In this document: one piece after another, positions 4,917 through 64,000 of the stretch | Numbering within the stretch: the first letter of the stretch is position 1 | Layout: each line of letters begins with the position of its first letter | Origin: a virus | DNA: 64,000 nucleotides | Virus record (IMG/VR): IMGVR_UViG_3300005254_000135 | Direction: 5' to 3' (one strand) | Made by a program: the position numbers and the translations under genes | The notes under the pieces: generated by a model | Databases searched by the model: none | Told to the model about the DNA's origin: nothing | The model's input: the letters and a program-made list of their open reading frames with translations, nothing else

Positions 4917-5368
4917 AGGCCACGGCCGGCCAGATCAAGCGACTTCACTGGGGGGCCGGGCTGCTCAAGCTCGATCGGGTCTCCTACGAGGCCCTGATCG
5001 AGGGCGTGAGCGGCCGGCCTTCGAGCAAGCAGCTCAGCCAGGCTCAGGCCGAGGCGGCCCTGGAGCGGATGGAAGACCGGATGCGGGCCGTGGGCATAAC
5101 CCCGCCCTGGCGGGTCGAGTATCCGGAAGAGCTGAAGGCGCTGGGCGAGAGAAGGGGCATGGCCAGCCAGGGGCAGCTCCGCTACCTCTGGAGCCTCTGG
5201 CGGAAGTACCGCAGCCAGCCCGGCCGGCGGGCCAGGGAGCCGAGGGATCTGCAGGCCCTGGGCGGCTTCCTGCGGGCCAGGTTCGACGTTTCCCAGGTCG
5301 CCTGGCTGGACAGCCAGACGGCCGGGCGGGTGATTGAGGGGCTCAAGGAGATGGTGGAGAGGGGATGA
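4913..5368 (+). CDS. GemA/gp16-family (DUF1018-like) protein
   Basis: QIKRLH...LKLDRVSYEALI...SSKQLS...QLRYLWSLW...VIEGLKEM pattern; Mu synteny. Confidence 0.75.
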   Translation: MKATAGQIKRLHWGAGLLKLDRVSYEALIEGVSGRPSSKQLSQAQAEAALERMEDRMRAVGITPPWRVEYPEELKALGERRGMASQGQLRYLWSLWRKYRSQPGRRAREPRDLQALGGFLRARFDVSQVAWLDSQTAGRVIEGLKEMVERG

Positions 5369-5541
5369 GGACGTGCGACGAGATCCCGGTGGTTGCCGCG
5401 GCCAGGAGGCTCCGGCTCTCGGAGAGGCAGGTCTACCGGCTGATCGAGGCGGGCAAGCTGCGGGTCAGGCGCTACTCAGCCCGGAAGACCTTTGTCCTTG
5501 TGGAGTCGATCAGGCAATACCTTGAAGCCCACCTCGCTTGA
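5365..5541 (+). CDS. 58-aa excisionase/MerR-like HTH protein (possible late activator)
   Basis: ATGA overlap with gemA; AARRLRLSERQVYRLIEAGKL HTH; not in the ORF track because it is under 60 aa. Confidence 0.8.
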   Translation: MRTCDEIPVVAAARRLRLSERQVYRLIEAGKLRVRRYSARKTFVLVESIRQYLEAHLA

Positions 5542-5545
5542 GCAT
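5398..5545 (+). repeat. Direct repeat copy 1 (148 bp; copy 2 at 6289-6436)
   Basis: By-eye alignment shows 8 mismatches, all at synonymous third codon positions. Confidence 0.95.
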
Positions 5546-5667
5546 CTTCAGATTCGGTGACATCAATAATCTTGTGGCGACATAGGCTCCATACAGCATC
5601 AAAGTTACATGATTTATTATACCTTCTTGAGTCATTAATATAAATATCAGCTAACCACTACTTTTTA

Positions 5668-5697
5668 TTGACATTTGAACAATTGCCGTAATATACA
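5668..5697 (+). promoter_or_regulatory. Sigma70-like promoter for the lipoprotein cassette
   Basis: TTGACA at 5668-5673 with TAATAT/TATACA 15-18 nt downstream in AT-rich DNA. Confidence 0.6.
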
Positions 5698-5908
5698 GAA
5701 ACCTAAGGGAGTTGCTTAGGTTTAGGTGTTTCACGCGGAGTTACAATCTTATTGAATATCGTTCGAACTAGAACCTCTGCTCTAGCTGACTCTCCGCGGG
5801 CAAGCCTCAATGACAGGGATTCGATTGAGATAGGTTTTCAGCCTTCAAGTTTGGATGGAGCCAGGGCGGGTCTGTAGCGGACAAAACCAGAGAGTCGGGG
5901 AGGTCGGG

Positions 5909-6238
5909 ATGATCGCGCGTAGAGTGCTGATAGCGGCGATAGTGTGCAGCCTGATCCTGTTGAGTGGATGCATAACTTTCCGGGAAAGATACGTGAACTC
6001 CCATCCGGGTCTCGATGACAAGACACGGGAGGCGATTCTTAAAGGCCAAATATTCATAGGCATGACTGCAGAGCAGGTTGAGGCTAGTTGGGGCTCGCCT
6101 GACAAAATCCATAAAAGTGTCGGCGCGACCTGGTCTCGAGAACAGTGGGTTTATGGAGGATTGAAGCCGGCGGGCAACTACGTAAGGCCAACGTACGTTT
6201 ACTTTGAGAAAGACCGCGTGACTGGGTGGCAGAAATAG
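5909..6238 (+). CDS. Lipoprotein with SmpA/OmlA (BamE)-like domain; candidate superinfection exclusion factor
   Basis: SD GGAGGT; lipobox LSG-C; IFIGMTAEQVEASWGSPD...EQWVY...YVYFEKDRV. Confidence 0.75.
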   Translation: MIARRVLIAAIVCSLILLSGCITFRERYVNSHPGLDDKTREAILKGQIFIGMTAEQVEASWGSPDKIHKSVGATWSREQWVYGGLKPAGNYVRPTYVYFEKDRVTGWQK

Positions 6239-6288
6239 CGTTACGATGGATATTGCCTACAAAACGACAGACCGCTGGTAATAAAGCG

Positions 6289-6436
6289 GCGGCCAGGAGG
6301 CTCCGCCTCTCGGAGAGACAGGTCTACCGGCTGATCGAGGCAGGCAAGCTGCGGGTCAGGCGATACTCGGCCCGGAAGACCTTTGTCCTTGTGGAGTCGA
6401 TCAGACAGTACCTTGAAGCCCACCTTGCTTGAGCAT
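6289..6436 (+). pseudogene. Second, 5'-truncated copy of the Xis-like HTH gene (repeat copy 2)
   Basis: Identical protein over the shared region but the original start is missing; lies in ORF 6226-6432 with an unrelated N-terminus. Confidence 0.7.
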
Positions 6437-6537
6437 TAGCGCTATTTCACCAGCTTACATACAGAGCAAAGATCAACCGGAACCTCCGGCCGATAAGGCA
6501 GAGTAAAATCTATCGAAGCTTGGCGCTGTCCTTTTTC

Positions 6538-6566
6538 TTGACATCCAAAGGACCATATCATAAAAA
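6538..6566 (+). promoter_or_regulatory. Sigma70-like promoter for the HEPN gene
   Basis: TTGACA-N17-TAAAAA, 22 nt upstream of ATG 6588. Confidence 0.65.
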
Positions 6567-6587
6567 TTTTAATAGAGGACTTTCCTG

Positions 6588-7769
6588 ATGACTTCACCTA
6601 AGAAACTATATAAGTTAGAGTTTCTGTTAGATGCGGGCAAGCATAACACCGCGAGTATGTTGAAGAAAGTCAATGTTGCCCTTGGGGCCCTAAAAAAAGG
6701 CCTCGATATACAAGTTGAGCCAGAAACTGGCAAACGGCTACGGTTGTGCATCGAAGGATCCTTGTCGGCTGTTGATAGGGCCCATGGGAGATTGAATAAA
6801 AAGTTCATCAAGTCTGGTTTTGCAGTTCGAACTATTGACGAGGCAGGGACAGAACTGCGAGATAACGCCTTCCGGGTAGTTGCCGAAATCGAGCAAGCAC
6901 TTCGCGCATTTATTCATAGGGTCACGACTGAGACGGTCGGCTTTGGATGGTGGGAGAAATGGAGCTCCCCAACCGCACGGAACAGGGCGGTAACCGTGCT
7001 GGAAAGGGCGCGGGACACAGGTGGCTTTCAGCATCCGATTGAGCTGATAGATTTCGATCATCTCATCGATCTAATCACTATTAATATCCGAGAACTGAGC
7101 GGTGAGCAGGCTTTCACGATTTCAGGCTTTTTGGAAATACTTAATGAATGTAATACATTTGAAGAGTTAAAGAATTTACTAGCTGAAAGAACAACCCCTC
7201 GTTCGGCATGGGATAACATATATGCCCTATACTTTGCCGATAAGGATTCCTGGAGCCAAATGAGCATAGAATTAAAAGAACATGTTATCCCAGCCAGAAA
7301 TAAGATCATGCACCATAGGCCATTTCACCAGTGGGAGCTCGATAAAATAACCGAAGTGCGGAATCGATTGTTGGCTATACTGAACACAGCAGAGAGACCG
7401 CCAAAACCAGAACAAGAAAAGATAAAAGTAGTAAGCGCGGAATTGTCAAGAGTTGCCAAACCCTGGATGGGCATGGTTATGGTACAGACAGCCGAGCCGG
7501 CCCAAAGGGCAGCCGAAGCACTAAAGCCAATCGGGAGGCTGATCGACCAATGGAATGAGCCGGCCCTAAGGATGGCTGAAGTGATGGAGCCATTTAGGAG
7601 GCTGATCGATCAAGTGAGTGAGCCGGCCCGGATGGCGGCTGAAGCGATGGAGCCATTTAGGAGGCTGATCGATCAAGTGAATGAGCCGGCCCGAAGAGTG
7701 GCTGAAGCGATGGAGCCATTCAGGAGGCTGATCGATCAAGTGAATGAGCCGGTCCTAAAGGGTGGCTGA
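6588..7769 (+). CDS. Swt1-like HEPN-domain RNase (candidate defence effector) with C-terminal 21-aa repeats; frameshifted near the 3' end
   Basis: EIEQALRAFI and RNKIMH (RxxxxH) HEPN motifs; AT-rich; ORF stops inside repeat 5 because of one extra base. Confidence 0.72.
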   Translation: MTSPKKLYKLEFLLDAGKHNTASMLKKVNVALGALKKGLDIQVEPETGKRLRLCIEGSLSAVDRAHGRLNKKFIKSGFAVRTIDEAGTELRDNAFRVVAEIEQALRAFIHRVTTETVGFGWWEKWSSPTARNRAVTVLERARDTGGFQHPIELIDFDHLIDLITINIRELSGEQAFTISGFLEILNECNTFEELKNLLAERTTPRSAWDNIYALYFADKDSWSQMSIELKEHVIPARNKIMHHRPFHQWELDKITEVRNRLLAILNTAERPPKPEQEKIKVVSAELSRVAKPWMGMVMVQTAEPAQRAAEALKPIGRLIDQWNEPALRMAEVMEPFRRLIDQVSEPARMAAEAMEPFRRLIDQVNEPARRVAEAMEPFRRLIDQVNEPVLKGG

Positions 7770-7809
7770 AGCGATGGGGCCAATCAGGAGGCTGATCGAA
7801 CGGGAGAAA
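7494..7809 (+). repeat. Five tandem in-frame 63-bp repeats (EPARxAAEAMEPFRRLIDQVN)
   Basis: GAGCCGG starts at 7494, 7557, 7620, 7683 and 7746; unit 5 has a 1-nt insertion. Confidence 0.95.
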
Positions 7810-8007
7810 GAGCTGGCGCAAAGGTTGGCTGAACAGATGGCCGGCCCGTCCCTGGAGGCGAGCCCGCAGCCTCAGCGAGCCCTTCCAAGGCCACGTCAGT
7901 CCCAAAAGAAGCCTAAAGCGGATAAAGACCATGCGGACGGAAAGAAGAAGGTGAGGAGCAAGCGGGCATCAACAGATAAGAACAGTACAACCGAGAATGA
8001 GGAGTAA
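7762..8007 (+). CDS. Out-of-frame continuation of the HEPN protein (rest of repeat 5 plus Lys-rich tail)
   Basis: VAEAMGPIRRLIE continues the repeat register after the extra A in CTAAAGGG (~7755-7762). Confidence 0.6.
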   Translation: MAEAMGPIRRLIEREKELAQRLAEQMAGPSLEASPQPQRALPRPRQSQKKPKADKDHADGKKKVRSKRASTDKNSTTENEE

Positions 8008-8088
8008 GGTCGAGCGGTGCAAGAGGAGAGTAGAGAGTCACTTCTGAAATATAATGTACTACATTTGGAAGTGAAGGAGGGCCGAGAA

Positions 8089-8478
8089 ATGGCAAAAACA
8101 AGAGTATTCATGAGTTTCGACTATGATAATGACAAGGATCTTCGAACCCTCTTGGCTGGACAAGCCAAGAACACCGACTCACCTTTCGAGCTGGCCGACT
8201 GGTCAGTCAAGGAGGCAATGACTGGAGACTGGAAGAAGAAAGTAAGGGAGAGAATAAAACGAGTGGATCAGATGATAGTGATCTGTGGCATGAAGACTGA
8301 CACTGCAACTGGTGTATCAGCCGAACTTATCATTGCCCAAGAGGAAAAGAAGCCGTATTTCCTTTTGCGAGGCTATAAAGACGAAATCTGCAAGAAGCCC
8401 AAGTCAGCCAAGGATTCTGATAAGGTATACAATTGGACTTGGGATAATCTTAAAAAACTTATTGGCGGAGCGCGGTAG
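8089..8478 (+). CDS. TIR-domain protein, Thoeris ThsB-like (MTH538/DUF1863 type)
   Basis: RVFMSFDYDND...DWSVKE...KVRERIK...IVICG...GVSAEL (catalytic Glu)...KPYF; SD GAAGGAGG; TATAAT at 8050. Confidence 0.85.
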   Translation: MAKTRVFMSFDYDNDKDLRTLLAGQAKNTDSPFELADWSVKEAMTGDWKKKVRERIKRVDQMIVICGMKTDTATGVSAELIIAQEEKKPYFLLRGYKDEICKKPKSAKDSDKVYNWTWDNLKKLIGGAR

Positions 8479-8483
8479 CGGTT

Positions 8484-8999
8484 GTGTCTAGCCATCCCGA
8501 AAACATGTTACCAGGTCTCTTCGACCATGGGATAGACGCAGATACGTACGGAACGGGCCAAACGTATTCAGTACATTTACTGGAACAGTACAAATTGTAC
8601 GTCGAGATGGCGGACAGAACGAGTTCAAGGCGTAATCTCGCTAACACCTTCTTCCTTACTCTGAACACGGGAATAATTGCTGCTATCGGGTTTGCACTAG
8701 ATAAGGGAGTCCATATCGGACGCAAGTGGACCTTGATTGGCCCCCTGATAGCCCTGCTTGCGCTTTGCTTCTCTTGGTGGTGTATTGTCAAATCGTACAG
8801 GAAACTTAATGAAGCTAAGTTCAAAGTAATCAATGAGATAGAGAAGCGGCTTCCTGCTTGTCCTTATTGCGCCGAGTGGAAGTGTTTGGGAGAGGGGCAG
8901 GAGCCAAAACTATATCGTGAGCTCACAAAAATTGAGAATTGGATCCCAGTAGTGTTTGCCGTATTGTATGTTATTGGAACCATTATGCTTATTGTGTAA
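8484..8999 (+). CDS. Small membrane effector (2-3 TM helices; RipA/SLATT-like)
   Basis: LLEQYKLYVEMADRTSSRRNLANTFFLTLNT, TM hairpin, SYRKLNEAKFKVINEIEKRLP, C-terminal TM; 5 nt after the TIR gene. Confidence 0.7.
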   Translation: MSSHPENMLPGLFDHGIDADTYGTGQTYSVHLLEQYKLYVEMADRTSSRRNLANTFFLTLNTGIIAAIGFALDKGVHIGRKWTLIGPLIALLALCFSWWCIVKSYRKLNEAKFKVINEIEKRLPACPYCAEWKCLGEGQEPKLYRELTKIENWIPVVFAVLYVIGTIMLIV

Positions 9000-9096
9000 A
9001 GGGTGACAGTCTTTCGGAGCTGTAAGGCCCAATAACTGATTCCGAAAGGTTGGCATTCACGTTTTATTCCGTTGGTCGACCATCGGAGGTGAATTT

Positions 9097-9603
9097 ATGG
9101 AAATCCCTGTTTTTGTTTCTTGTCCGACAACCCTTAGCCAGGCTCAAAGCTCTTTACGCAACAGTATTATCAAAATATTAAAAAAATATAGTTTAGAGCC
9201 ACGTTCTTTAGGACGTTCCGACTACCCGACACAAAACCCTCTTCAGGAGGTCCTTGCGATCGCCAGGCATTGTTCGGGCGGAATTATACTCGGTTTCAAG
9301 CAGTTTATTACAGATTCGGGCACATGGAAGCCGGATACGAGCGAACAAGAGCAAGTTTCAGGCTCTATCTGTTTCCCTTCGCCTTGGAATCAGCTCGAAG
9401 CAGGTATTTTATTTAGCCTTAAAATACCTCTGTTGGTTTTCAAGGAGGCGGAAATTAACGGGGGAATATTTGATAGTGGTGCTTCAAAGGTGTTCATACA
9501 TAACATGCCGATTAATTCTATTACTAATGAAATAATCAAACAATACGAAATAATTATACAAAAATGGCAAGGAGAGGTTAGAAAACATTATTATATATAT
9601 TGA
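9097..9603 (+). CDS. Second TIR-like / nucleotide-processing Rossmannoid protein
   Basis: PVFVSCP...LGRSDYP...PLQEV...CSGGIILG...SPWNQLEAG...IPLLVFKE; SD GGAGGT; very AT-rich. Confidence 0.6.
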   Translation: MEIPVFVSCPTTLSQAQSSLRNSIIKILKKYSLEPRSLGRSDYPTQNPLQEVLAIARHCSGGIILGFKQFITDSGTWKPDTSEQEQVSGSICFPSPWNQLEAGILFSLKIPLLVFKEAEINGGIFDSGASKVFIHNMPINSITNEIIKQYEIIIQKWQGEVRKHYYIY

Positions 9604-9807
9604 AGATGTGACACTTGATCCATAAAACACACTAATAGGTGGGCCGGGGGAGGCATACTCCACGGCCAATTCAAGCTCCTGTCAGCACCATCCAACCGAT
9701 TGGACCCTATTGAATTCCCATCATCTCAAATTCCGCACTACTCCTCAGTGCTCGACCGAAACCTTAAGTCTGTCCACCACAACGTCTAAAGTGCTATAGT
9801 ACTTCAT

Positions 9808-11790
9808 ATGGCCCCAAAGACACTCATCACCGTCACTCCCAAGGAGCTAAAACAAATCTTGGCCGCCCACCATGAATGGGTCCAATCCATGGGAGCGAAT
9901 GGGCAAAGGGCCAGCTTACACAGGGCAAATCTGTATTGGGCCAACCTGAATGGGGCTAACCTGCGTGAAGCAGATCTGAGTGAGGCCTTCCTGACCGGGG
10001 TAAAACTGTTATCGACCAACCTGATCGAAGCCGACCTTAGCGGAGCAAAACTTTCCGGAGCCTACCTGAAAGGAGCCAAACTAAATGCGGCCGATCTTTC
10101 CGAAGCCGACCTGTCTGGAGCCAACCTGAACGGGGCCAACCTGGTCGAGGCCGATCTATCCGGGGCCAACCTGTCCGGGGCCAACCTGGTCGAGGCCGAT
10201 CTGTCCGGGGCCAACCTGGTCGAGGCCGATCTATCCGGGGCCAACCTGAACGGGGCCAAGCTGAACGAGGCCGATTTAAGCGGGGCAAATCTTTCCGAAG
10301 CCAGCCTGATCGAGACCTACCTGGCTGGGGCCATCCTGAAAGGGGCCAAACTGGGTGAGGCTGACCTGTCCGGGGCCACCCCGAACAGAGCCAACCTGAG
10401 CGGGGCCAACCTGAGCGGAGCAAACCTTTTCAGGACCTATCTGATCGGGGCCTATATGGCCGAGGCCAACCTGCCCGGGGCTGAACTGACTGCAGCCAAC
10501 CTGAACGGAGCTAATCTGAGGGGGGCCAACCTGAAAGGGGCCCAACTGACCGAGGCCAGCCTTTTAGGGGCTATACTGCGGAGGGCCAGCCTGACCGAGG
10601 CAAGCCTGACCGGGGCCAACCTAGTCGGGGCCAACCTGATCGAGGCTGATCTGGCCAGGGCCGACTTGAAAGGGGCCAATCTGAGCAACGCCGACCTGAT
10701 TGAGACCAGCCTGAGTGAGACCAACCTGGCCTTGGCCAAATTGAACAAAGCGAACTTGAGCAAGGCCGATCTAAGTAAGACTAGCCTGATCTGTGCTATC
10801 CTGTCTGATGCCGATCTAAGCGATGCGACTCTAACCAAAGCCAACCTCCGGGGAGCCGACTTGACCGGCGCCTCCCTCGTCGAGGCTGTCCTGGAAAACG
10901 CCAACCTGGAGGACGCCAAGCTTGCCAACTGCAATATGAATGGCGCGCAGATGAAGGGCGCCCGTCTCTTCTTTCACCAGGCCGTAGACGCCCGAACCTG
11001 GATCGGCAAGCCGGAAGACCGTCATCTGATTCACTGGCGTCTCAAGCCTGGCGAGCAGCCCCCAGAACCATATGTCCTACTTTGGCTTTTCTCGGAGCAC
11101 AGGGAAATGGCCCAATGGCTGGAGAGACTACAACGGGCTCACCCCGGGGAGTGGGAGCTGCAGTCCGTCCTGGTAGCCGGGAAGCCTAAGTTCCAGATCA
11201 AGGTGTATTCTGATGACCTTAAGCGGCTAATTACTGAAAGCATCGAGGAAGCAGGGCTTCTCGCCCAAGGGGAAAGGATTGAGACAAACCTGCACCAGTT
11301 GATGGCCAAGGCCGAGCGCATTGAAGAGGGTGTGGTGGCCATCCAAAGCGTTCTGGATCATCAGAACGAGCATATCCAACAGATCGCCAGGCAATTGCAG
11401 GGCCTCAACCTGGAAACCCTGGACGGCCTTAAGCCTCTCCTGGAGAAGACGGACAAGGCCAAGGTTGCCTTTAGCCAAGATGACGTCATCCAGTTGACCG
11501 CCTTGTTTCGAGAGGCCCTGGCCAAGAACGAGGACAAGCCTGGATTTTGGTCCCGGATTGGAGAGACTTTCGGCGACTTGACCCAGCACTTCGGCATGCA
11601 CCTGGGAGTGTTGCCCCTGGCGGAACTTATCCACCGAAGCACTGGCGACTTGGGCTCGGTAACCCTGAGTGCCGGCTGCCTTATCGCTGTCCTGGCAGAC
11701 GTCTTCTTAAAATGGCGCGACGACAAAAAGAAGATCGAGCAGTATAAACAGCTTCCGGTTCCTGAAGATCCTGATCTGCAGGAAAGCTAA
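9808..11790 (+). CDS. Pentapeptide-repeat protein (660 aa) with C-terminal coiled coil and hydrophobic tail
   Basis: About 350 aa of A(D/N)LxG/A(D/N)Lxx repeats; ILAAHHEW...G.RA N-cap; C-terminal hydrophobic helices. Confidence 0.92.
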   Translation: MAPKTLITVTPKELKQILAAHHEWVQSMGANGQRASLHRANLYWANLNGANLREADLSEAFLTGVKLLSTNLIEADLSGAKLSGAYLKGAKLNAADLSEADLSGANLNGANLVEADLSGANLSGANLVEADLSGANLVEADLSGANLNGAKLNEADLSGANLSEASLIETYLAGAILKGAKLGEADLSGATPNRANLSGANLSGANLFRTYLIGAYMAEANLPGAELTAANLNGANLRGANLKGAQLTEASLLGAILRRASLTEASLTGANLVGANLIEADLARADLKGANLSNADLIETSLSETNLALAKLNKANLSKADLSKTSLICAILSDADLSDATLTKANLRGADLTGASLVEAVLENANLEDAKLANCNMNGAQMKGARLFFHQAVDARTWIGKPEDRHLIHWRLKPGEQPPEPYVLLWLFSEHREMAQWLERLQRAHPGEWELQSVLVAGKPKFQIKVYSDDLKRLITESIEEAGLLAQGERIETNLHQLMAKAERIEEGVVAIQSVLDHQNEHIQQIARQLQGLNLETLDGLKPLLEKTDKAKVAFSQDDVIQLTALFREALAKNEDKPGFWSRIGETFGDLTQHFGMHLGVLPLAELIHRSTGDLGSVTLSAGCLIAVLADVFLKWRDDKKKIEQYKQLPVPEDPDLQES

Positions 11791-11900
11791 TCCTTTCCCC
11801 TCCCCAACCCCCCTTTTTCTTAGCGACATAAGCGACACAAGCGCCCTCCCTCATAGTCCCGCCTGATTATCCTAATCCCTACCACAGCCTCGATATAAAT

Positions 11901-12144
11901 GGCGCATTGCGCCGATAAGGAACGGGCCGGGTGAGGCGGGTTGTTCGGCGCTGACCACCCGGCCCAACAAAAAGGCGGGGCCGAGTGGCTTCAGGCCTCT
12001 TTCAACATAGCGATCATCCCCAGGCGGGCCCTGAAGGCCGCCTGGCCCCCTCCGGGTTGCGACCCGGGGGAAACCCGTTCCCATCTCTCTTCTCTCCAAC
12101 CCAAAGACCCGGCCGGGGCGGCCTGAAGCCACCGCCCCGGCCGG
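11901..12144 (+). ncRNA. Structured leader upstream of the late operon
   Basis: Perfect stems 11924-33/11956-65 and 12109-21/12132-44; the latter's 10-nt loop is the exact complement of 11986-11995. Confidence 0.5.
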
Positions 12145-34380: not shown

Positions 34381-35003
34381 TGACCCTGGCTGAGACACAG
34401 GACAGCTACCGGCGGACGTCCCTGAATCTCCTGCCGCCCAGGGCTTACAGCCGCGACGGGTTCATGGCCGGCGAGGCCACGGTGAGGGGTCAGGTCATGG
34501 GCGGCCTGGACGTCGAGGCCCGGGCCCTGGTCGATACAGCCCTGCCGCCCATCGTCAACGGGAAGCTCCGCTGTCCCGAGAGGGATCTGCCCGATTGGGA
34601 AAGGCTCTACGCCCTGCCCTCGACCGGAAGCTGCGAGCTGCGCAACGCCCGGCTCCTGGTCGCGATCAGGCTGCGCCGGAGCATCCGGCCGCTGGACATC
34701 CGGGAGGCCCTGGAGATCCTTCTGGGCTACCAGCCGGAGATCACCGAGCAGCTTCTGTTCAGGGCCGACGATCCCGGCTCATTGACCGACAAGGACCTCC
34801 TCCTTGAGCCCGAGGAGGAGGTCTACCGCTACTTCGTGGCCATTGACGGCGCTCTGGCCCGGGATGCCGACTATACCCGGGCGGATATTCAGCGGATCAT
34901 CGACGACGTCCAGGGCGGTCACACTCTGGGAGTAGCGCGGTTTACCGGCTTTTACGCCGATGATCCACTTTCGCTGACCGACCTTGACCTTCTGGATGTT
35001 TAG
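34380..35003 (+). CDS. Baseplate/tail protein (Mu gp48/YmfQ-like)
   Basis: LLPPRAY...LPDWERLYAL; synteny. Confidence 0.75.
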   Translation: MTLAETQDSYRRTSLNLLPPRAYSRDGFMAGEATVRGQVMGGLDVEARALVDTALPPIVNGKLRCPERDLPDWERLYALPSTGSCELRNARLLVAIRLRRSIRPLDIREALEILLGYQPEITEQLLFRADDPGSLTDKDLLLEPEEEVYRYFVAIDGALARDADYTRADIQRIIDDVQGGHTLGVARFTGFYADDPLSLTDLDLLDV

Positions 35004-35015
35004 GGGGAAACGACC

Positions 35016-35981
35016 ATGAGCAATGGCTATATCCAGGCTGAGAGCGGCCAGAACGGCTGCTTCCATGACATTGCCGCCGAGCAGCAGGTCCCCAGCCGCT
35101 TCCTGGATCTGCTGCAGCGTGACCTGATCCGGCTGAGCGACGCCCACAGCAAGGATCACTACCTGCACCACCTCCCCCAGATCCACACCTCCAATTACAA
35201 AATGGGCTTCACGACCTCGGCCGACACCGTCACCCTGGACGCCGACGTCCTCTTCACCGTGGGCGGCGTGACCTTCAACACCAGCGGTCTGGAAAGCCGG
35301 AACGTAACCATCCCCGACAGTGCCACCCGCTATCTCTATGCCGAGGTGGCCGCCAACTGCGGCCTGATGAGCAACTGGACAGATGACCCCATCACCCGAA
35401 CTCTGACCGTCACTTTGACCCTGGAGGAGAGCGAGGTGGCCAGTACGGCCACCAAGATGATCGTCCTCAAGGCGGTCAAGGGAGGAGCCGGCGAAACTCC
35501 GGTGGTCACCCCCTATGAGAATAACGGCCACGCGGGTCTCTTTGATAATCCTCTGGTCACCTGCGTGGTCGAGCTTACCAGCGACAAGGCGGTCGGCCAG
35601 AATACCACGACTGTCTTGTCCTGGGACGCAGTGAAGTTGGTCGTGGGCGGGGCGGCGGATGATTTCTGGCTCGCCGGCGCCCCGACCAGGATCATGGTCC
35701 CGGAGGGCTACAACTACGCGATGTTTGGGTTCACGGGCCGGCATACGACCAACCTCAACGTCGACAATGACAACGCCGGCTACCTCATAGTGAACGGGTC
35801 CGTCAGGGTGGCCGAGGGCAATATCGGGCAGAAATACATCGTCGGCACGACCATCGTATCGCCCTGGGTGGCCGTCACCGGCGGCTCGGACTATGTCGAG
35901 TTCGTCTACTACGAGCAGGCCAACACCCCCGGCATCCAGCTCGCCGCCGGTAGCTGCATCTGGATCTGGCTGAGGAAATAG
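35016..35981 (+). CDS. Tail fibre / receptor-binding protein
   Basis: Follows gp48; beta-rich; homologous to 43180-44154. Confidence 0.7.
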   Translation: MSNGYIQAESGQNGCFHDIAAEQQVPSRFLDLLQRDLIRLSDAHSKDHYLHHLPQIHTSNYKMGFTTSADTVTLDADVLFTVGGVTFNTSGLESRNVTIPDSATRYLYAEVAANCGLMSNWTDDPITRTLTVTLTLEESEVASTATKMIVLKAVKGGAGETPVVTPYENNGHAGLFDNPLVTCVVELTSDKAVGQNTTTVLSWDAVKLVVGGAADDFWLAGAPTRIMVPEGYNYAMFGFTGRHTTNLNVDNDNAGYLIVNGSVRVAEGNIGQKYIVGTTIVSPWVAVTGGSDYVEFVYYEQANTPGIQLAAGSCIWIWLRK

Positions 35982-35990
35982 GAGGCTCCC

Positions 35991-36545
35991 ATGCCCTGGA
36001 AAGATTGGCCCAGCATCGAGGTCGGCCCGGACCGGGCCGCGGCCGTGGCTACGGCCGCCGGCGCGGATCCCCACGACCCGGCAAGTTGTGTTTACAGCGG
36101 CGGCCGGCTCCACGTCCGGAACGCGACCCAGGAGGACCTGGCCGCCGCCCTGGCCGCCTACGACCCGCTCCCGGTTCTGCGCGAACAGGCTCTGGAGGAG
36201 ATCGATCGCCGGGCCGGCGAGGCTAGGGCTCCCTACCTGACCGATATCCCCGGCCAGGCGCTAGTTTATGAGGCCAAGCGCCGCGAGGCCGTGGCCTGGA
36301 TCGCCGCCGGCGAGCCGACCGATCCAAAGGACGTCGATTTTCCCATCGCCGCGGCCGAGGCCTTGGCCTGCGGCCGGACCCTGGCCGAGCAGCTCAAGGT
36401 CTACGCGGCCGAGGCGGCTGCCTGGCAGGTCCTGGCCGGGACTATGGAGGCCACACGCATGGCGGCCAAGCAGGCCGTATTGGCCGCGACCGACGTCGCC
36501 GCGATCCAGGCCATCCTGGACGGCCTGAGCTGGCAGAAGGCCTGA
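35991..36545 (+). CDS. Tail fibre assembly-like protein
   Basis: EIDRRAGEARAPY...VYEAKRREA...RMAAKQAV; homologous to 42613-43170. Confidence 0.7.
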   Translation: MPWKDWPSIEVGPDRAAAVATAAGADPHDPASCVYSGGRLHVRNATQEDLAAALAAYDPLPVLREQALEEIDRRAGEARAPYLTDIPGQALVYEAKRREAVAWIAAGEPTDPKDVDFPIAAAEALACGRTLAEQLKVYAAEAAAWQVLAGTMEATRMAAKQAVLAATDVAAIQAILDGLSWQKA

Positions 36546-36552
36546 GAGGCGC

Positions 36553-36726
36553 ATGGCCCGGATCGACAAAGCCGCCCTGGCCGAGATAGCCCGCCGGACC
36601 ATGATCCGGATCTGGCGGCCCGAGCTCCGCCGGCGCCTGGCCGAGCGGTTCAGCCGGACGCGGCTGTGGCCTAAAACCTCAGCCGGCGCAGATAGCGCCG
36701 CCAAACCAACCCAAGAAAGGAGGTGA
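36553..36726 (+). CDS. 57-aa hypothetical protein
   Basis: Open frame with ATG after GAGAGG; no recognisable motif. Confidence 0.3.
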   Translation: MARIDKAALAEIARRTMIRIWRPELRRRLAERFSRTRLWPKTSAGADSAAKPTQERR

Positions 36727-37174: not shown

Positions 37175-37744
37175 ATGACCCGACGGACCTGCCAGGAGGG
37201 CGTGGCCCTGATCAAGCTCAGCGAGGGTTACGAGGCCCTGCCCTATTTCTGCGCCGGCGCCGCGCTGACCACCGGACACGGCCACGTGATCCGCGCCTCG
37301 GAGCTGGGCCTGCCCGCCCGGGATGAATTTTGGCGCGTGGTCGCGGATCTGAAAGCCCGGATCAGGGCCAAGGAGCTCCGGCCCAAGGAAGCCACCGAGC
37401 AGCTCCGGGCCTACATCCGGCGGGCCGGCCTGATCAGCATATTGACTGTGACTCCCGAGGATGCCGAGGTCCTGCTGAGGGCCGACATGGCCGAGGCCGA
37501 GGCGGCCGTGGAGCGGCTGGTCAAGAGGCCGTTAACCGACCGTCAGTTCGCCGCCCTGGTCAGCCTGGTCTACAACGTCGGCGCCGGCGAGCTGGCCAAA
37601 TCTCGGCTCCTGGAGAAGCTCAATCGCGGGGACTACCGGGGGGCGGCTGAGGAGTTCGACTGGATCCGGGCCGGCGACGAGGTGCAGCCCGGCCTGGTGA
37701 CGCGCCGGGCGGCCGAGCGGGCGATGTTCCTGGAGGCGGCATGA
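37175..37744 (+). CDS. Endolysin, phage lysozyme (GH24-like) with helical insertion
   Basis: LIKLSEG...YFCAGAALTTGHGH...QFAALVSLVYNVG...PGLVTRRAAE. Confidence 0.9.
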   Translation: MTRRTCQEGVALIKLSEGYEALPYFCAGAALTTGHGHVIRASELGLPARDEFWRVVADLKARIRAKELRPKEATEQLRAYIRRAGLISILTVTPEDAEVLLRADMAEAEAAVERLVKRPLTDRQFAALVSLVYNVGAGELAKSRLLEKLNRGDYRGAAEEFDWIRAGDEVQPGLVTRRAAERAMFLEAA

Positions 37745-37986: not shown

Positions 37987-38040
37987 ACGATGTTTCGTCT
38001 GATGGCAGGATGGGGGCAGGCTCAAGGTTTGGAGGGAACC

Positions 38041-39204
38041 ATGAGGAATCTTGTGCTTGAGCTCCAGCAGGCCAGCCGGAACGTGGCCCGGATCAGGCGG
38101 TACATGCGCCAGGTCCTGGTGATCGCCGCGGTCGAGGTCCTGGTCGGTCTGGCCCTGGTCGCGGCCCTGGCGGCCGGGGAGTCCCGGACCGGCCAAGTGA
38201 CCCGGATCATCGACGGAGACACCCTGGTAGTCGCCCACAATGGCCGCCAGGAGACGGTCCGGGTGGCCGGAATCGACTGCCCCGAACTCAGCCAGCCCTT
38301 TGGCGACCAGGCCCGCCGGGCGGCCGAGAGACTGGTTCTGGGAAAAGAGGTCAGGCTGGAGGTCCGGGCCATCGGCTATTACGGCCGGACCATCGCCCGG
38401 GTGACCCTGCCCAACGGCCGGGATCTGGCCGAGGAGCTGGTCAGGGATGGCCTAGCCTGGGCGCGCGCCCGGGTCTACCGCGACGCCGAGGCCTCGGCCA
38501 AGGGCGCCAAGCTGGGCCTTTGGTCCGGTCCTAAGCCGACCGCGCCCTGGGAGTGGCGGAATAGGAAATCACTAATTAGGGAGCTTAATTGGTATCCGGA
38601 TTATGGTAGAACCAGCCGGAATAAAAGGCTCGCGTATTTCGTGAATCACCCCTTTATCCAAAGCAAAATCAGGGCCTTTGGTCTCACCCGAATCCATAAG
38701 AGATTTTATTTCATCCATAGTGAGCTTTGTCCGCTCAACAAAGACCTTACGCATGCGTGCTTCGTCAGCATTCAAGGCAGCCAGGTGCTCAGCCAATATC
38801 GGACGTCGAATATCTATTTCTTTATAATATTGGGAAGTACCATGAAAGAGGAAGGTGGACGTGGGGGCAGCGTATCTAGTCTCGCCAGCCAAAAAAACAA
38901 TATTAGCAATGGAATTAACGCTTCCGACGTTATGAGTGGTGAGCTTTATCGGCAAGGCTCGCAATTCGTTATAGATGGTGAAACCAGATATAATATTCCC
39001 CCCCCAACTGCTGATGTGAAGGCAGACCTCTTGACCACCTTGGGCAACATATCCAGTGCAAATATCAAGCAATTCCTTGGTGCATGTTGGGTCAATCGCC
39101 GGAAAGGCAGGAAAGAAGGAAATATACAGTTTATCTGGCATCTCAATTCCCTCCTTGACTCAATAGCCTTGGGAAATGGTGAGAGAGTGGAGGGCCACCG
39201 GTGA
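38041..39204 (+). CDS. Thermonuclease (SNase) with signal/TM anchor; homology ends near 38571 and the frame then runs antisense through the ClpP gene
   Basis: IIDGDTL, RVAGIDCPE, YGRTIA, GLW...PWEWR; SD GGAGGG. Confidence 0.8.
   Translation: MRNLVLELQQASRNVARIRRYMRQVLVIAAVEVLVGLALVAALAAGESRTGQVTRIIDGDTLVVAHNGRQETVRVAGIDCPELSQPFGDQARRAAERLVLGKEVRLEVRAIGYYGRTIARVTLPNGRDLAEELVRDGLAWARARVYRDAEASAKGAKLGLWSGPKPTAPWEWRNRKSLIRELNWYPDYGRTSRNKRLAYFVNHPFIQSKIRAFGLTRIHKRFYFIHSELCPLNKDLTHACFVSIQGSQVLSQYRTSNIYFFIILGSTMKEEGGRGGSVSSLASQKNNISNGINASDVMSGELYRQGSQFVIDGETRYNIPPPTADVKADLLTTLGNISSANIKQFLGACWVNRRKGRKEGNIQFIWHLNSLLDSIALGNGERVEGHR
38572..39141 (-). CDS. Stand-alone ClpP/S14-family protease (moron)
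   Basis: ISSWGG, GSVNSIANIVFLAG (Ser), FLFHG (His), ALDKGVIHEI; AT-richer; SD AAGGAGGG. Confidence 0.85.
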   Translation of the reverse strand: MPDKLYISFFPAFPAIDPTCTKELLDICTGYVAQGGQEVCLHISSWGGNIISGFTIYNELRALPIKLTTHNVGSVNSIANIVFLAGETRYAAPTSTFLFHGTSQYYKEIDIRRPILAEHLAALNADEARMRKVFVERTKLTMDEIKSLMDSGETKGPDFALDKGVIHEIREPFIPAGSTIIRIPIKLPN

Positions 39205-39311
39205 GAGCGGCAACTCCCGCCGGCGGCCGGATGAACCCCGTAAAGATGCGCATCCGACCAGGCGTTAACCCGACCCTCCCTGCCCACGTGGGCAAGGGGG
39301 AGTATAGCACG
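39185..39311 (-). ncRNA. Conserved structured element upstream of methylase, copy 1
   Basis: Shares long identical blocks and compensatory stems with 63854-63979; TGnTATACT at 39301-39309 on the - strand. Confidence 0.6.
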
Positions 39312-39325
39312 CTAGAGGTCGGATC

Positions 39326-40129
39326 ATGCAGTCGTTCATTCCCTGGGTCGGCGGTAAAAGGTCGCTGGCTGGGCGGATCGTGTCTCTGATTCCGCGGCAT
39401 GAGGTCTATGCGGAGCCATTCATGGGCGCGGCCTGGGTATTCTTCGCCAAGCCCCGCTCGCAAGTGGAGGTCCTCAACGACTTGAACGGCGACCTGGTGA
39501 ACCTCTTCCGGGTGATCAGGGACCGGTTCCAGGATTTCTACCTGCGGCGCATCTTCCTTATTTCCGCTGAGCGGGAGTACAAAGACTTTGTCCGCCGCCT
39601 GAAAACAATGGACTGGCAGGACGACGTCGAGCGGGCCCTGATGTTCTGGTACTGCCTGAAGCAGTCCTTCGGCGCCCAGGTCGGCGGCGGCTGGGGCTTC
39701 GCCCGCACGCGCCCGCCCGAGAGCCTGGACATGGACGGCTTGAAGGAGATCCACGAGCGGCTAAAGGGGGTCTATATAAACGACCAGGCTGCGCTGGAAT
39801 GCATCCGGCGGTGGGACTCGCCGGCGACCTTCTTCTACCTGGACCCGCCCTACATGATCACCACCACCGCCAAGGGCCGAGGCTACTATCAGCACACCAT
39901 GACCTTGGACGACCACAGTCGGCTCCGGGAGGCTCTGGGCAAGATCAAAGGCCGCTGGCTGCTCAGTTATGATGACGACCCCTTGATCCGCAAGCTTTAC
40001 GAGGGCTTCACGATCATGGAACCTGAGGTCACCTACACGCTGAACAACCGCCCCGGAATCCGCCGCCGCCGGGTTTCAGAGCTCCTCATTGCCAACTATG
40101 AGTTACCCAGACCGTCCCTTGGCCGATAG
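39326..40129 (+). CDS. dam: D12-class N6-adenine DNA methyltransferase (Dam-like)
   Basis: IPWVGGK, EPFMGAAWVFF, LNDLN, YLDPPY. Confidence 0.92.
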   Translation: MQSFIPWVGGKRSLAGRIVSLIPRHEVYAEPFMGAAWVFFAKPRSQVEVLNDLNGDLVNLFRVIRDRFQDFYLRRIFLISAEREYKDFVRRLKTMDWQDDVERALMFWYCLKQSFGAQVGGGWGFARTRPPESLDMDGLKEIHERLKGVYINDQAALECIRRWDSPATFFYLDPPYMITTTAKGRGYYQHTMTLDDHSRLREALGKIKGRWLLSYDDDPLIRKLYEGFTIMEPEVTYTLNNRPGIRRRRVSELLIANYELPRPSLGR

Positions 40130-63008: not shown

Positions 63009-63842
63009 TCACTTGGCCGGCACCCAGCCCTTGCCGAAGCTCTCGCCCCTCGGCAAAGCGTAATTGGCGATCAGGAGCTCCTGGCGGTGGCCGGCCGGCG
63101 AGCCGGCGCGGGTGCCGAAGTGGTACGAGGCCTCCACCGTCTCGATGTGGCAGCCCCGGTAGAGCTCTCGTATGCCGGGATGGACCTCGTTGCTCATGAG
63201 CCACAAGCCCCTTACCCCTTCCAAGACCTCGGCCAGGCGGCGGTGATCATCCCAGGTCATGTCGCACTGGTACATCCCCTTGCCCGAGGGGGTGTTGGTT
63301 ATGGGGAAGGGAGGGTCGATGTAGAAGAAAGTCTGGGGGGAGTCCCAGCGCCTCAGGCAGGCCTCCACGTCCAGGTTCTCGACATAGACGCGCTTGAGCC
63401 TCTCGTGGACGGCGTGCAGCTCGTCCATCTCCAGGTTGGGGGCCGGCTCATATTTTTTCGCGGCGAAGCCAGCGCCGTAAACGCCCCTGAAAGAGTGCCT
63501 GAGCCCGTACCAGTACATCAGCGCCCGGTCGATGTCGTCCAGCCACTGGCCCGTCTTCAGGCGGTCCAGGAACCGGACATAAAGCCGCCGCGAGGAGATC
63601 AGGTAGACGCGCCGCCGGTAGAACTCCTCGAACCGGTCCTGAAGCACCTGAAACAGGTTGACCAGGTGGCCGTTGGCGTCATTGACCGCCTCGACCTTTG
63701 ACCTGGGCTTGCTGAAAAAGACCCAGGCCGCCCCCATGCAGGGCTCCACGTAGGTTTTGTGCTCAGGGATCAGGCTGATTATCTTAGGGGCCAACAGCCG
63801 CTTGCTCCCGATCCAGGGTATCCAGGGTTTGATTGGCGGCAT
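63009..63842 (-). CDS. dam: D12-class N6-adenine DNA methyltransferase (Dam-like)
   Basis: IPWIGSK, EPCMGAAWVFF, YIDPPF; paralogous to 39326-40129. Confidence 0.9.
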   Translation of the reverse strand: MPPIKPWIPWIGSKRLLAPKIISLIPEHKTYVEPCMGAAWVFFSKPRSKVEAVNDANGHLVNLFQVLQDRFEEFYRRRVYLISSRRLYVRFLDRLKTGQWLDDIDRALMYWYGLRHSFRGVYGAGFAAKKYEPAPNLEMDELHAVHERLKRVYVENLDVEACLRRWDSPQTFFYIDPPFPITNTPSGKGMYQCDMTWDDHRRLAEVLEGVRGLWLMSNEVHPGIRELYRGCHIETVEASYHFGTRAGSPAGHRQELLIANYALPRGESFGKGWVPAK

Positions 63843-63853
63843 CCGACTTCCCC

Positions 63854-63979
63854 CGTGCTATACTCCCCCTCGCCCCGCGGGGCAGGGAGGGTCGGGTTAA
63901 CACCTGGTCGGATGTCTGGCTTAAACTCCTCATCCGGCCGCCGTCCGGGGCGGCATCCCCGGCCGGTGGCCCTCCACTC
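63854..63979 (+). ncRNA. Conserved structured element upstream of methylase, copy 2
   Basis: TGCTATACT at 63856-63864; stems covary with copy 1. Confidence 0.6.
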
Positions 63980-64000
63980 GATTCCACTCCGGCCCGGGCC

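Follow-up and report, generated by a model that had tools for sequence, protein, structure and literature searches.

A conserved and uncatalogued RNA element upstream of phage DNA-modification genes, with two mutually exclusive folds

Introduction

A stretch of viral DNA from IMG/VR record IMGVR_UViG_3300005254_000135 carries, directly in front of each of its two D12-class methylase genes (dam 1 and dam 2), a copy of an element that recurs at no fewer than 47 loci and is a real, conserved and uncatalogued RNA-level control element of phage DNA-modification genes. The stretch, referred to here as the window, is 64,000 nt long and corresponds to G000:C1:2653-66652 within a 69.9-kb provirus record. 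As a family the element is new, although devices of this kind are known, and it probably keeps the enzymes of DNA modification off until they are needed; its transcript can adopt two alternative folds, and we infer that translation depends on which of them forms.

Phage methylases, Mom and enzymes related to them overcome the restriction systems of the host and can do it harm, and for both reasons the timing of phage DNA-modification enzymes matters. To our knowledge, little has been described of how such enzymes are restrained apart from the Com system of phage Mu.

Two copies better conserved than their genes

The element was first noticed by reading the letters of the window alone (the original prediction), and all of the sequence strings quoted at that stage were located in their places in both copies. 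Copy 1 spans 39186-39325 on the plus strand, directly 5' of dam 1, and copy 2 spans 63843-63978 on the minus strand. A covariance model (CM R1) built from 31 sequences of the family, a check that had been proposed with the prediction, finds exactly these two matches in the window, at 115 bits for copy 1 and 117.5 bits for copy 2.

The two copies align over approximately 140 nt with long identical blocks and are 77% identical, against 67% for the dam coding sequences, whose Dam proteins are 53% identical. Equally conserved flanks, which would have pointed to a recent duplication, were looked for and not seen: the 200 nt upstream of the copies are 55.5% identical compared with 53% for shuffled sequence. 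The element is better conserved than the gene that it precedes and its flanks are unrelated, which together exclude a simple recent duplication. Differences between the copies are confined to the loops and to the inner stem of a long imperfect hairpin, P1, where they are compensatory (GAGAG/CTCCC versus CCGGGG/CCCCGG, the latter in copy 2, in which P1 lies at 63937-63970 on the minus strand).

A family of at least 47 loci

The closest homologues of Dam (65-69% identity) are found on three unrelated contigs, each of which has the element in the 130-146-nt gap upstream of the gene. Pattern scans combined with CM R1 extended this to 47 distinct members scoring 37-129 bits, drawn from viral contigs, metagenome contigs and contigs of metagenome-assembled genomes that are mostly from Thermodesulfobacteriota; the labels attached to them are Thermodesulfobacteriota, Desulfovibrio, Desulfarculia, Elusimicrobiales and Proteobacteria. 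The claim of a conserved, covarying element that travels with a methylase gene is borne out by this family and its alignment. Other searches returned little: exact 22-mer scans of genome and viral contigs gave no match, nor did blastn when the element was compared with cultured phages and with E. coli genomes, and searching viral contigs for loci with the Dam 1 protein gave none, the homologues being reached via the protein database. Loose patterns for the 3' half and for hairpin P2 produced mainly chance matches in genome contigs, with no covariance-model members in 79 loci and two in 77 loci.

No family in Rfam 15 matches the whole window at gathering thresholds, and around copy 1 only chance matches to microRNAs and small RNAs (sRNAs) appear at E-values up to 10, so the Rfam check advised at the outset points to no catalogued motif. 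The 'D12-methyl' motif mentioned in the original prediction was not traced in the literature searched, nor was a paper found on a prophage sRNA at a methylase. A small coding open reading frame (ORF) inside the element was ruled out in view of the covarying stems and of the indels by which the loops differ.

One further match lies outside this set. CM R1 gives a full-length match of 20.6 bits in the Stx2c phage LC727883 (E 2e-4 in 5 kb, the E-values of this model being rough), placed precisely in the gap that separates a small ORF from an M.EcoGII-type methylase gene. Blastn finds no similarity between the element and this enterobacterial M.EcoGII-type leader, which was not found in the literature searched, and the two are treated here as putative distant relatives.

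Genes that follow and precede the element

In all 47 members the element lies directly 5' of a DNA-modification module, on the same strand, with the gene start no more than a few bases from its 3' end. The families found downstream are unrelated to each other and include D12 Dam, short N6_N4 methylases, stand-alone ParB-like genes, a C5 cytosine methylase and, in what we refer to as the ParB-methylase group, a 445-aa protein that combines ParB_N with an N6_N4 methylase. The gene com (PF10122) is present in members L033, L081 and L085, with the order element, com, D12 methylase in L033 and element, com, Mom in L081. The suspected link with D12 methylases thus holds for both window copies but not for the family, which spans several unrelated families including com-mom. 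The start codon falls within, or at most 8 nt after, a third copy of CGGAU in about 44 of the 47 members, the exceptions being the com loci L081 and L085.

Upstream neighbours vary, and include a primase, a tail protein, an endolysin, DUF5662 and a dGTP-diphosphohydrolase-like gene; because these differ while modification genes always follow, the element is best regarded as part of the DNA-modification module. Member L028 (497-681) corresponds to copy 2 (window 63805-64000; L004) in the end of the upstream ORF, a GC hairpin and the element, and from the start codon on it has a ParB_N gene in place of dam, which on sequence comparison is a cassette exchange exactly at the 3' edge of the element.

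Members L012 (2878-4017, minus strand) and L085 (711-1838, minus strand) have a short ORF or com followed by a protein of 375-379 aa with P-loop and GNAT domains (phrog_11143), a candidate for one more DNA-modifying enzyme that is controlled in this way.

Covarying helices and two folds

Alignment, folding and the covariation of the family define the architecture of the element, which is described here for copy 1 as read on the plus strand. The 5' strand of the long-range helix P0, GGAGGGCCA (39189-39197), is followed by P1 (39194-39227), with arms at 39194-39207 and 39214-39227 (GCCACCGGTGAGAG/CTCCCGCCGGCGGC) and the loop CGGCAA, and by P2 (39228-39256), in which CGGAUG (39228-39233) and CAUCCG (39251-39256) enclose a 17-nt variable loop. 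The 3' side of P2 belongs to a middle strand, CAUCCGACC (39251-39259), and a junction strand then leads from P2 to the 3' strand of P0, CGACCCUCC (39271-39279), which pairs with 39189-39197 and overlaps the 5' arm of the hairpin P3 (39274-39302). The top of P3 (39282-39293) is a perfect 12-nt palindrome, GCCCACGTGGGC (as RNA GCCCACGUGGGC). After P3 come UAUAGCA, the Shine-Dalgarno sequence AGAGG, GGUCGGAU and AUG, so that the segment 39314-39328 holds the Shine-Dalgarno sequence, the 3' strand of a further helix, P4 (GGTCGGAT in DNA letters, 39317-39324), and the dam ATG at 39326. The corresponding minus-strand features of copy 2 are the middle strand CATCCGACC (63906-63914), P3 at 63863-63891 with the palindrome GCCCCGCGGGGC at 63872-63883, and the P4 3' strand AGTCGGATG (63840-63848), which includes the dam 2 start codon; this ATG (63840-63842) sits within GTCGGATG.

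Four helices covary in the family. When P0, P1, P2 and the top of P3 are combined (fold 1), 93% of the cells in the 31-sequence alignment are paired, compared with 86% for shuffled columns and 33-47% when partners are slid, and 13 pairs have changed on both sides; within the inner part of P1 this is true of six pairs out of ten. P0, of the form GGAGGG(YYR):(YRR)CCCUCC, covaries as CUG:CAG, UCG:CGA, UUG:CAA, GAAGGG:CCCUUC and GGAGAG:CUCUCC. The P2 pairing CGGAUG:CAUCCG is invariant in all 47 members, partly since the search patterns fixed it.

Two strands in the middle of the element each have two possible partners. CCCUCC can pair with the 5' GGAGGG in P0 or with a 3' GGGAGG in lower P3, and CAUCCG(ACC) can pair with the 5' CGGAUG in P2 or with (GGU)CGGAU(G) at the start of the gene, that is CAUCCGACC with GGUCGGAU(G), in P4. 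Two folds that compete for both strands are mutually exclusive, and the second (fold 2: full P1, P3 and P4) pairs 89.7% of cells in the same 31 sequences against 84% when shuffled. Changes that involve all three strands support both alternative pairings. In L081 the set GGAGGG/CCCUCC/GGGAGG has become GGAGAG/CUCUCC/GGAGAAG, and among the enterobacterial relatives a change of the middle strand from AAGCGAA to AAGCAAA is accompanied by UUCGCU to UCUGCU in the 5' partner and CGCUU to UGCUU in the 3' partner. The varied downstream families, the long-range P0 helix and the existence of two exclusive folds are points that the original prediction missed.

Fold 2, which hides the start, has the lowest predicted energy in most members, among them both window copies (-67.2 and -69.9 kcal/mol). 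In copy 1 it is predicted to pair 39252-39259 with 39317-39324, and in copy 2 the predicted helix contains the ATG itself. Fold 1 lies within 0-5 kcal/mol of fold 2 in the ParB-methylase group and is worse by 19 kcal/mol in copy 1 and by 9 kcal/mol in copy 2.

The top of P3 is a perfect 12-nt palindrome in both copies and in most members, down to the self-complementary central four bases, for which at least eight versions occur (ACGT, CGCG, TGCA, TCGA, GCGC, CATG, AGCT and GATC). A hairpin needs no palindrome, and its presence hints at RNAs that dimerise or kiss, or at a site that is recognised on both strands.

A proposed translational lock in the leader of the sense strand

The reading that we favour, and to which we give about an even chance, is that the element would be the 5' leader of phage DNA-modification genes and would control their translation as a lock, hiding the start codon by default and refolding to free it. 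Fold 1 would form a three-way junction of P0, P2 and the hairpin P1 and leave the ribosome-binding site free. In fold 2, CCCUCC would join P3 and CAUCCGACC would pair with GGUCGGAU(G) to form P4; as the P4 strand either separates the Shine-Dalgarno sequence from the start codon or includes the latter, fold 2 would block initiation. The expected default is 'methylase off', given that fold 2 is the predicted ground state in both window copies. Release could come from the ribosome, from a late phage factor or through folding during transcription. An antisense transcript from the box TGCTATACT described below, starting at the P3 palindrome, may provide a second lock in the subgroup to which both window copies belong.

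This reading builds on the observation, made at the outset, that ATCCGAC is complementary to the GTCGGAT of the start region, and the folds agree: eight of nine pairs between the P2 middle strand and the start region are possible in both copies. The term 'RNA-only' switch was too strong, as a protein or other trigger is also possible, but the accompanying statement that no com gene is visible holds for the whole 69.9-kb record, from which com (PF10122) is absent. Support for the sense strand as the acting one comes from the position and orientation of the element, which are fixed relative to otherwise unrelated genes, from the link with the start codon described above and from the outer part of P1, where wobble pairs number 39 U.G against 10 A.C.

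Transcription of copy 2 can be followed beyond the right end of the window (G000:C1 about 66630-67130; L004 630-1130), where a sigma-70-like promoter, TTGAAA-18-CATAAT, lies on the dam-sense strand. After it come, in order, two GC hairpins with T runs, an ORF of 66 aa without a Pfam match, one more GC hairpin, copy 2, dam, terS and terL. The region upstream of copy 2 looks like the pR'/tR'-type head of a late operon, and with such a head in front a sense transcript through copy 2 would be expected late in infection. The element itself holds neither a sigma-54 promoter nor a sigma-70 promoter on the sense strand, judging from spacings that by eye do not fit and from a promoter scan that found none.

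Several observations weigh against a lock on the sense strand. P4 shows no covariation in the 47-member set, its core being invariant and its extension often mismatched, and L081 and L085, in which com comes next, have no P4 partner at the start codon. With fold 1 in copy 1 worse by 19 kcal/mol, a switch would need outside help. Part of the invariance of several motifs is only apparent, these having been prescribed by the search patterns. Finally, the opposite strand is favoured by the mismatches, which across the 47 members number 149 A.C against 11 G.U when P0, P4, the inner part of P1 and the extension of P2 are taken together, by RNAalifold, with -56 for the opposite strand and -39 for the sense strand, and by the z-scores, which for the opposite and sense strands are -4.1 and -2.7 in copy 1, and -2.1 and -1.4 in copy 2.

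A possible antisense RNA from the opposite strand

These last figures are what would be expected if the functional product were instead an RNA of about 110 nt transcribed opposite the methylase gene, silencing its mRNA in the manner of a type I antitoxin, a reading that we regard as possible rather than probable. Such an RNA would start at the P3 palindrome, 7-8 nt after a box of the form TGnTAnnnT, and in its folded form P0', a 9-bp P2' and P1' would meet in a three-way junction; the RNA would act by full pairing with the leader or by pairing of its CAUCCGGCC strand with the start region, and the sense-strand folds would be mirror images without a function of their own. Pairing across the 47 members is accordingly fuller on the opposite strand, at 97% in P0, 96% in inner P1 and 100% in the 9-bp P2, compared with 93.5% in P0, 88% in inner P1 and 58% in the three P2-extension pairs on the sense strand, and position 7 of P0 is C-G, U-A or C.A and never U.G. 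The same tendency underlies the early remark that G-U pairs favour the strand opposite dam, and an A.C mismatch in P1, which is G.U on the opposite strand, is indeed present in both copies. Its weight is reduced by the fact that many of the A.C cells are inherited or at invariant positions, so that the estimate becomes 20-25 events against 7-9. The excess of U.G in outer P1 noted above points the other way, as do the enterobacterial relatives, in which wobbles in P1 pair on the sense strand only.

An extended -10-like sequence pointing away from dam, as first described, is found as TGCTATACT in both copies (39301-39309 on the minus strand for copy 1, 63856-63864 on the plus strand for copy 2). 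Its TG is conserved in 45 of 47 members, its first T in 46 and the A at position 2 in 45, so that TGnTA is kept in 45; the hexamer reads TATAAT, TACAAT or TAGAAT in other members and the box is TGnTAGGCT in the E. coli relatives, and in three subgroups, judged by eye, the palindrome has its first G 7-8 nt past the hexamer. Against this, hexamer position 6, the essential last T, is C in 24 members and T in 23, and the whole ParB-methylase group has C with the element otherwise intact. There is no -35 for the opposite-strand box, a two-hexamer promoter scan does not call TGCTATACT, and neither copy has a terminator-like site after P0' on the opposite strand. An antisense RNA alone would also leave unexplained the third CGGAU copy at the start codon of unrelated genes, unless its target were in trans. 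The mechanism put forward originally, a sequestering leader combined with a cis-antisense RNA, is partly supported: a lock on the sense leader is the preferred reading, and a putative antisense RNA also fits the mismatches and the TGnTA kept in 45 of 47 members, even though 24 of them have C in place of the essential last T. No terminator-like site lies between copy 1 and the neighbouring ClpP-like gene, and an antisense transcript of copy 1 would enter that gene, which fits the accompanying idea that it drives ClpP.

Other explanations

A combination of both strands can also be envisaged, in which the element would represent a new class of signal-responsive RNA for DNA-modification genes across bacterial phyla: the sense RNA would be a bistable leader, the antisense RNA a three-way-junction RNA starting at a self-complementary hairpin, the palindromic loops would kiss or dimerise, and a late-phase factor or metabolite would tip the folds. 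We consider this scheme unlikely.

More improbable still is that the element acts as DNA, whether as protein-binding repeats with a dyad operator (the 12-bp palindrome), as a folded single-strand signal or as a recombination junction for cassette exchange. Such a role would account for a palindrome that extends through the four central bases in most members and is not needed for a hairpin, for the threefold occurrence of CGGATG and of GGAGGG-type words, for L028, which joins the upstream DNA and element of copy 2 to another gene from the start codon on, and for the primase gene that adjoins the ParB-methylase group. However, helix sequences change with complementarity kept, in at least eight palindrome centres and many P1 inner stems, which argues for nucleic-acid folding rather than a fixed protein site; strand-asymmetric mismatches are unexpected for duplex recognition, and no DNA-binding gene accompanies the element across the family.

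The least probable explanation is a riboswitch, in which the three-way junction would be an aptamer for S-adenosylmethionine (SAM), S-adenosylhomocysteine (SAH) or another signal, and the ligand would stabilise fold 1 and turn translation on: a junction that keeps certain unpaired bases (ACCAGG..AAYCCC, UANCA) and leads into a strand-sharing expression platform is riboswitch-like in architecture, and the SAM-using enzymes downstream fit a SAM-type signal, but the Mom and P-loop+GNAT genes do not use SAM, com encodes a regulator, the junction strand is not conserved between subfamilies (8-16 nt here, 4-5 nt in E. coli phages) and no known riboswitch family in Rfam 15 matches.

Gene context in the window

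The window contains two prophage-like gene sets arranged tail to tail. Gene set 1 has the order endolysin (37175-37744), an SNase-domain ORF, the ClpP-like gene on the opposite strand, the element and dam 1; gene set 2, on the minus strand, runs from the element through dam 2, terS and terL to an endolysin at 42009-41599. Dam 1 is a D12-class adenine methylase of 267 aa (39326-40129, plus strand; PF02086, E 2.7e-31), and dam 2 encodes a D12-class methylase of 277 aa (63009-63842, minus strand) followed by terS and terL. The ClpP-like gene (38572-39141, minus strand; PF00574, E 2e-15) adjoins the 5' edge of copy 1 and faces away from it, and would be downstream of any antisense transcript.

The SNase-domain ORF (37990-39204, plus strand) is 404 aa long, with the SNase domain at residues 89-179; it stays open through the antisense of the ClpP-like gene and ends at a TGA (39202-39204) within P1 of copy 1. 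Over 38572-39141 only one of these two overlapping frames can be real. Positions 5000-12000 of the window form a stretch of low GC content (45-60% compared with about 69%), between a high-GC left-end region and the terminase-head-tail genes of the first prophage, and look like inserted cargo.

Significance

One RNA architecture is found in front of at least five unrelated DNA-modification families, from Desulfobacterota prophages to E. coli Stx phages, a breadth that points to a general and portable 'safety catch', swapped along with the genes themselves. M.EcoGII is silent in lysogens (PMC5778455), and a leader of this kind could explain the silence of such enzymes there. The element also offers a testable model RNA with two defined folds, and its description would fill a gap in the Rfam annotation of phage genomes.

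Comparison with known systems

A close functional parallel is the com-mom operon of Mu, in which a translation-inhibition structure is opened by the zinc-finger protein Com (PMC6483171, PMC3299994). That system is, as the element would be, a post-transcriptional lock on a harmful DNA-modification gene, its start codon lies in a stem as in the predicted fold of both window copies, and family members L081, L085 and L033 precede com-mom or com-methylase operons. It differs in that the element described here is upstream of com or of the methylase itself and comprises about 130 nt with four helices, and in that most family loci, this record among them, have no com gene. Homology to the Mu leader was ruled out, the best CM R1 score on the right end of Mu (35000-36717) being 2.2 bits.

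Type I toxin-antitoxin systems combine a structured toxin leader with a divergent or overlapping antisense RNA, as in SymR/symE and IstR-1/tisB. The resemblance lies in a default-off leader before a harmful gene and in a possible constitutive antisense RNA from the extended -10 box, whereas here the box is degenerate in half of the family, the antisense RNA is putative and a DNA-modifying enzyme from a phage operon takes the place of the toxin.

A catalogue of candidate RNAs from IMG/VR includes four candidates upstream of Dam (DNA N-6-adenine methyltransferase) genes (PMC10690425). As far as their descriptions allow a comparison, these are comparative-genomics candidates in the same kind of place as the element.

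A close structural parallel is the enterobacterial M.EcoGII-type leader. Its primary sequence has almost wholly diverged, P2 being UUCGCU:AGCGAA (covarying to UCUGCU:AGCAAA), its junction strand is shorter, and it has an upstream small ORF with a terminator. This 75-aa ORF and the 66-aa ORF upstream of copy 2 were compared, and homology between them was rejected (BLASTP E 2.9, no Pfam match). The sense-only wobbles in its P1 are matched by a z-score of -3.6 for the sense strand against -2.6 for the opposite strand. It nonetheless shares with the element the position directly 5' of the methylase, the order of the helices, a near-perfect palindromic hairpin and middle strands with two partners.

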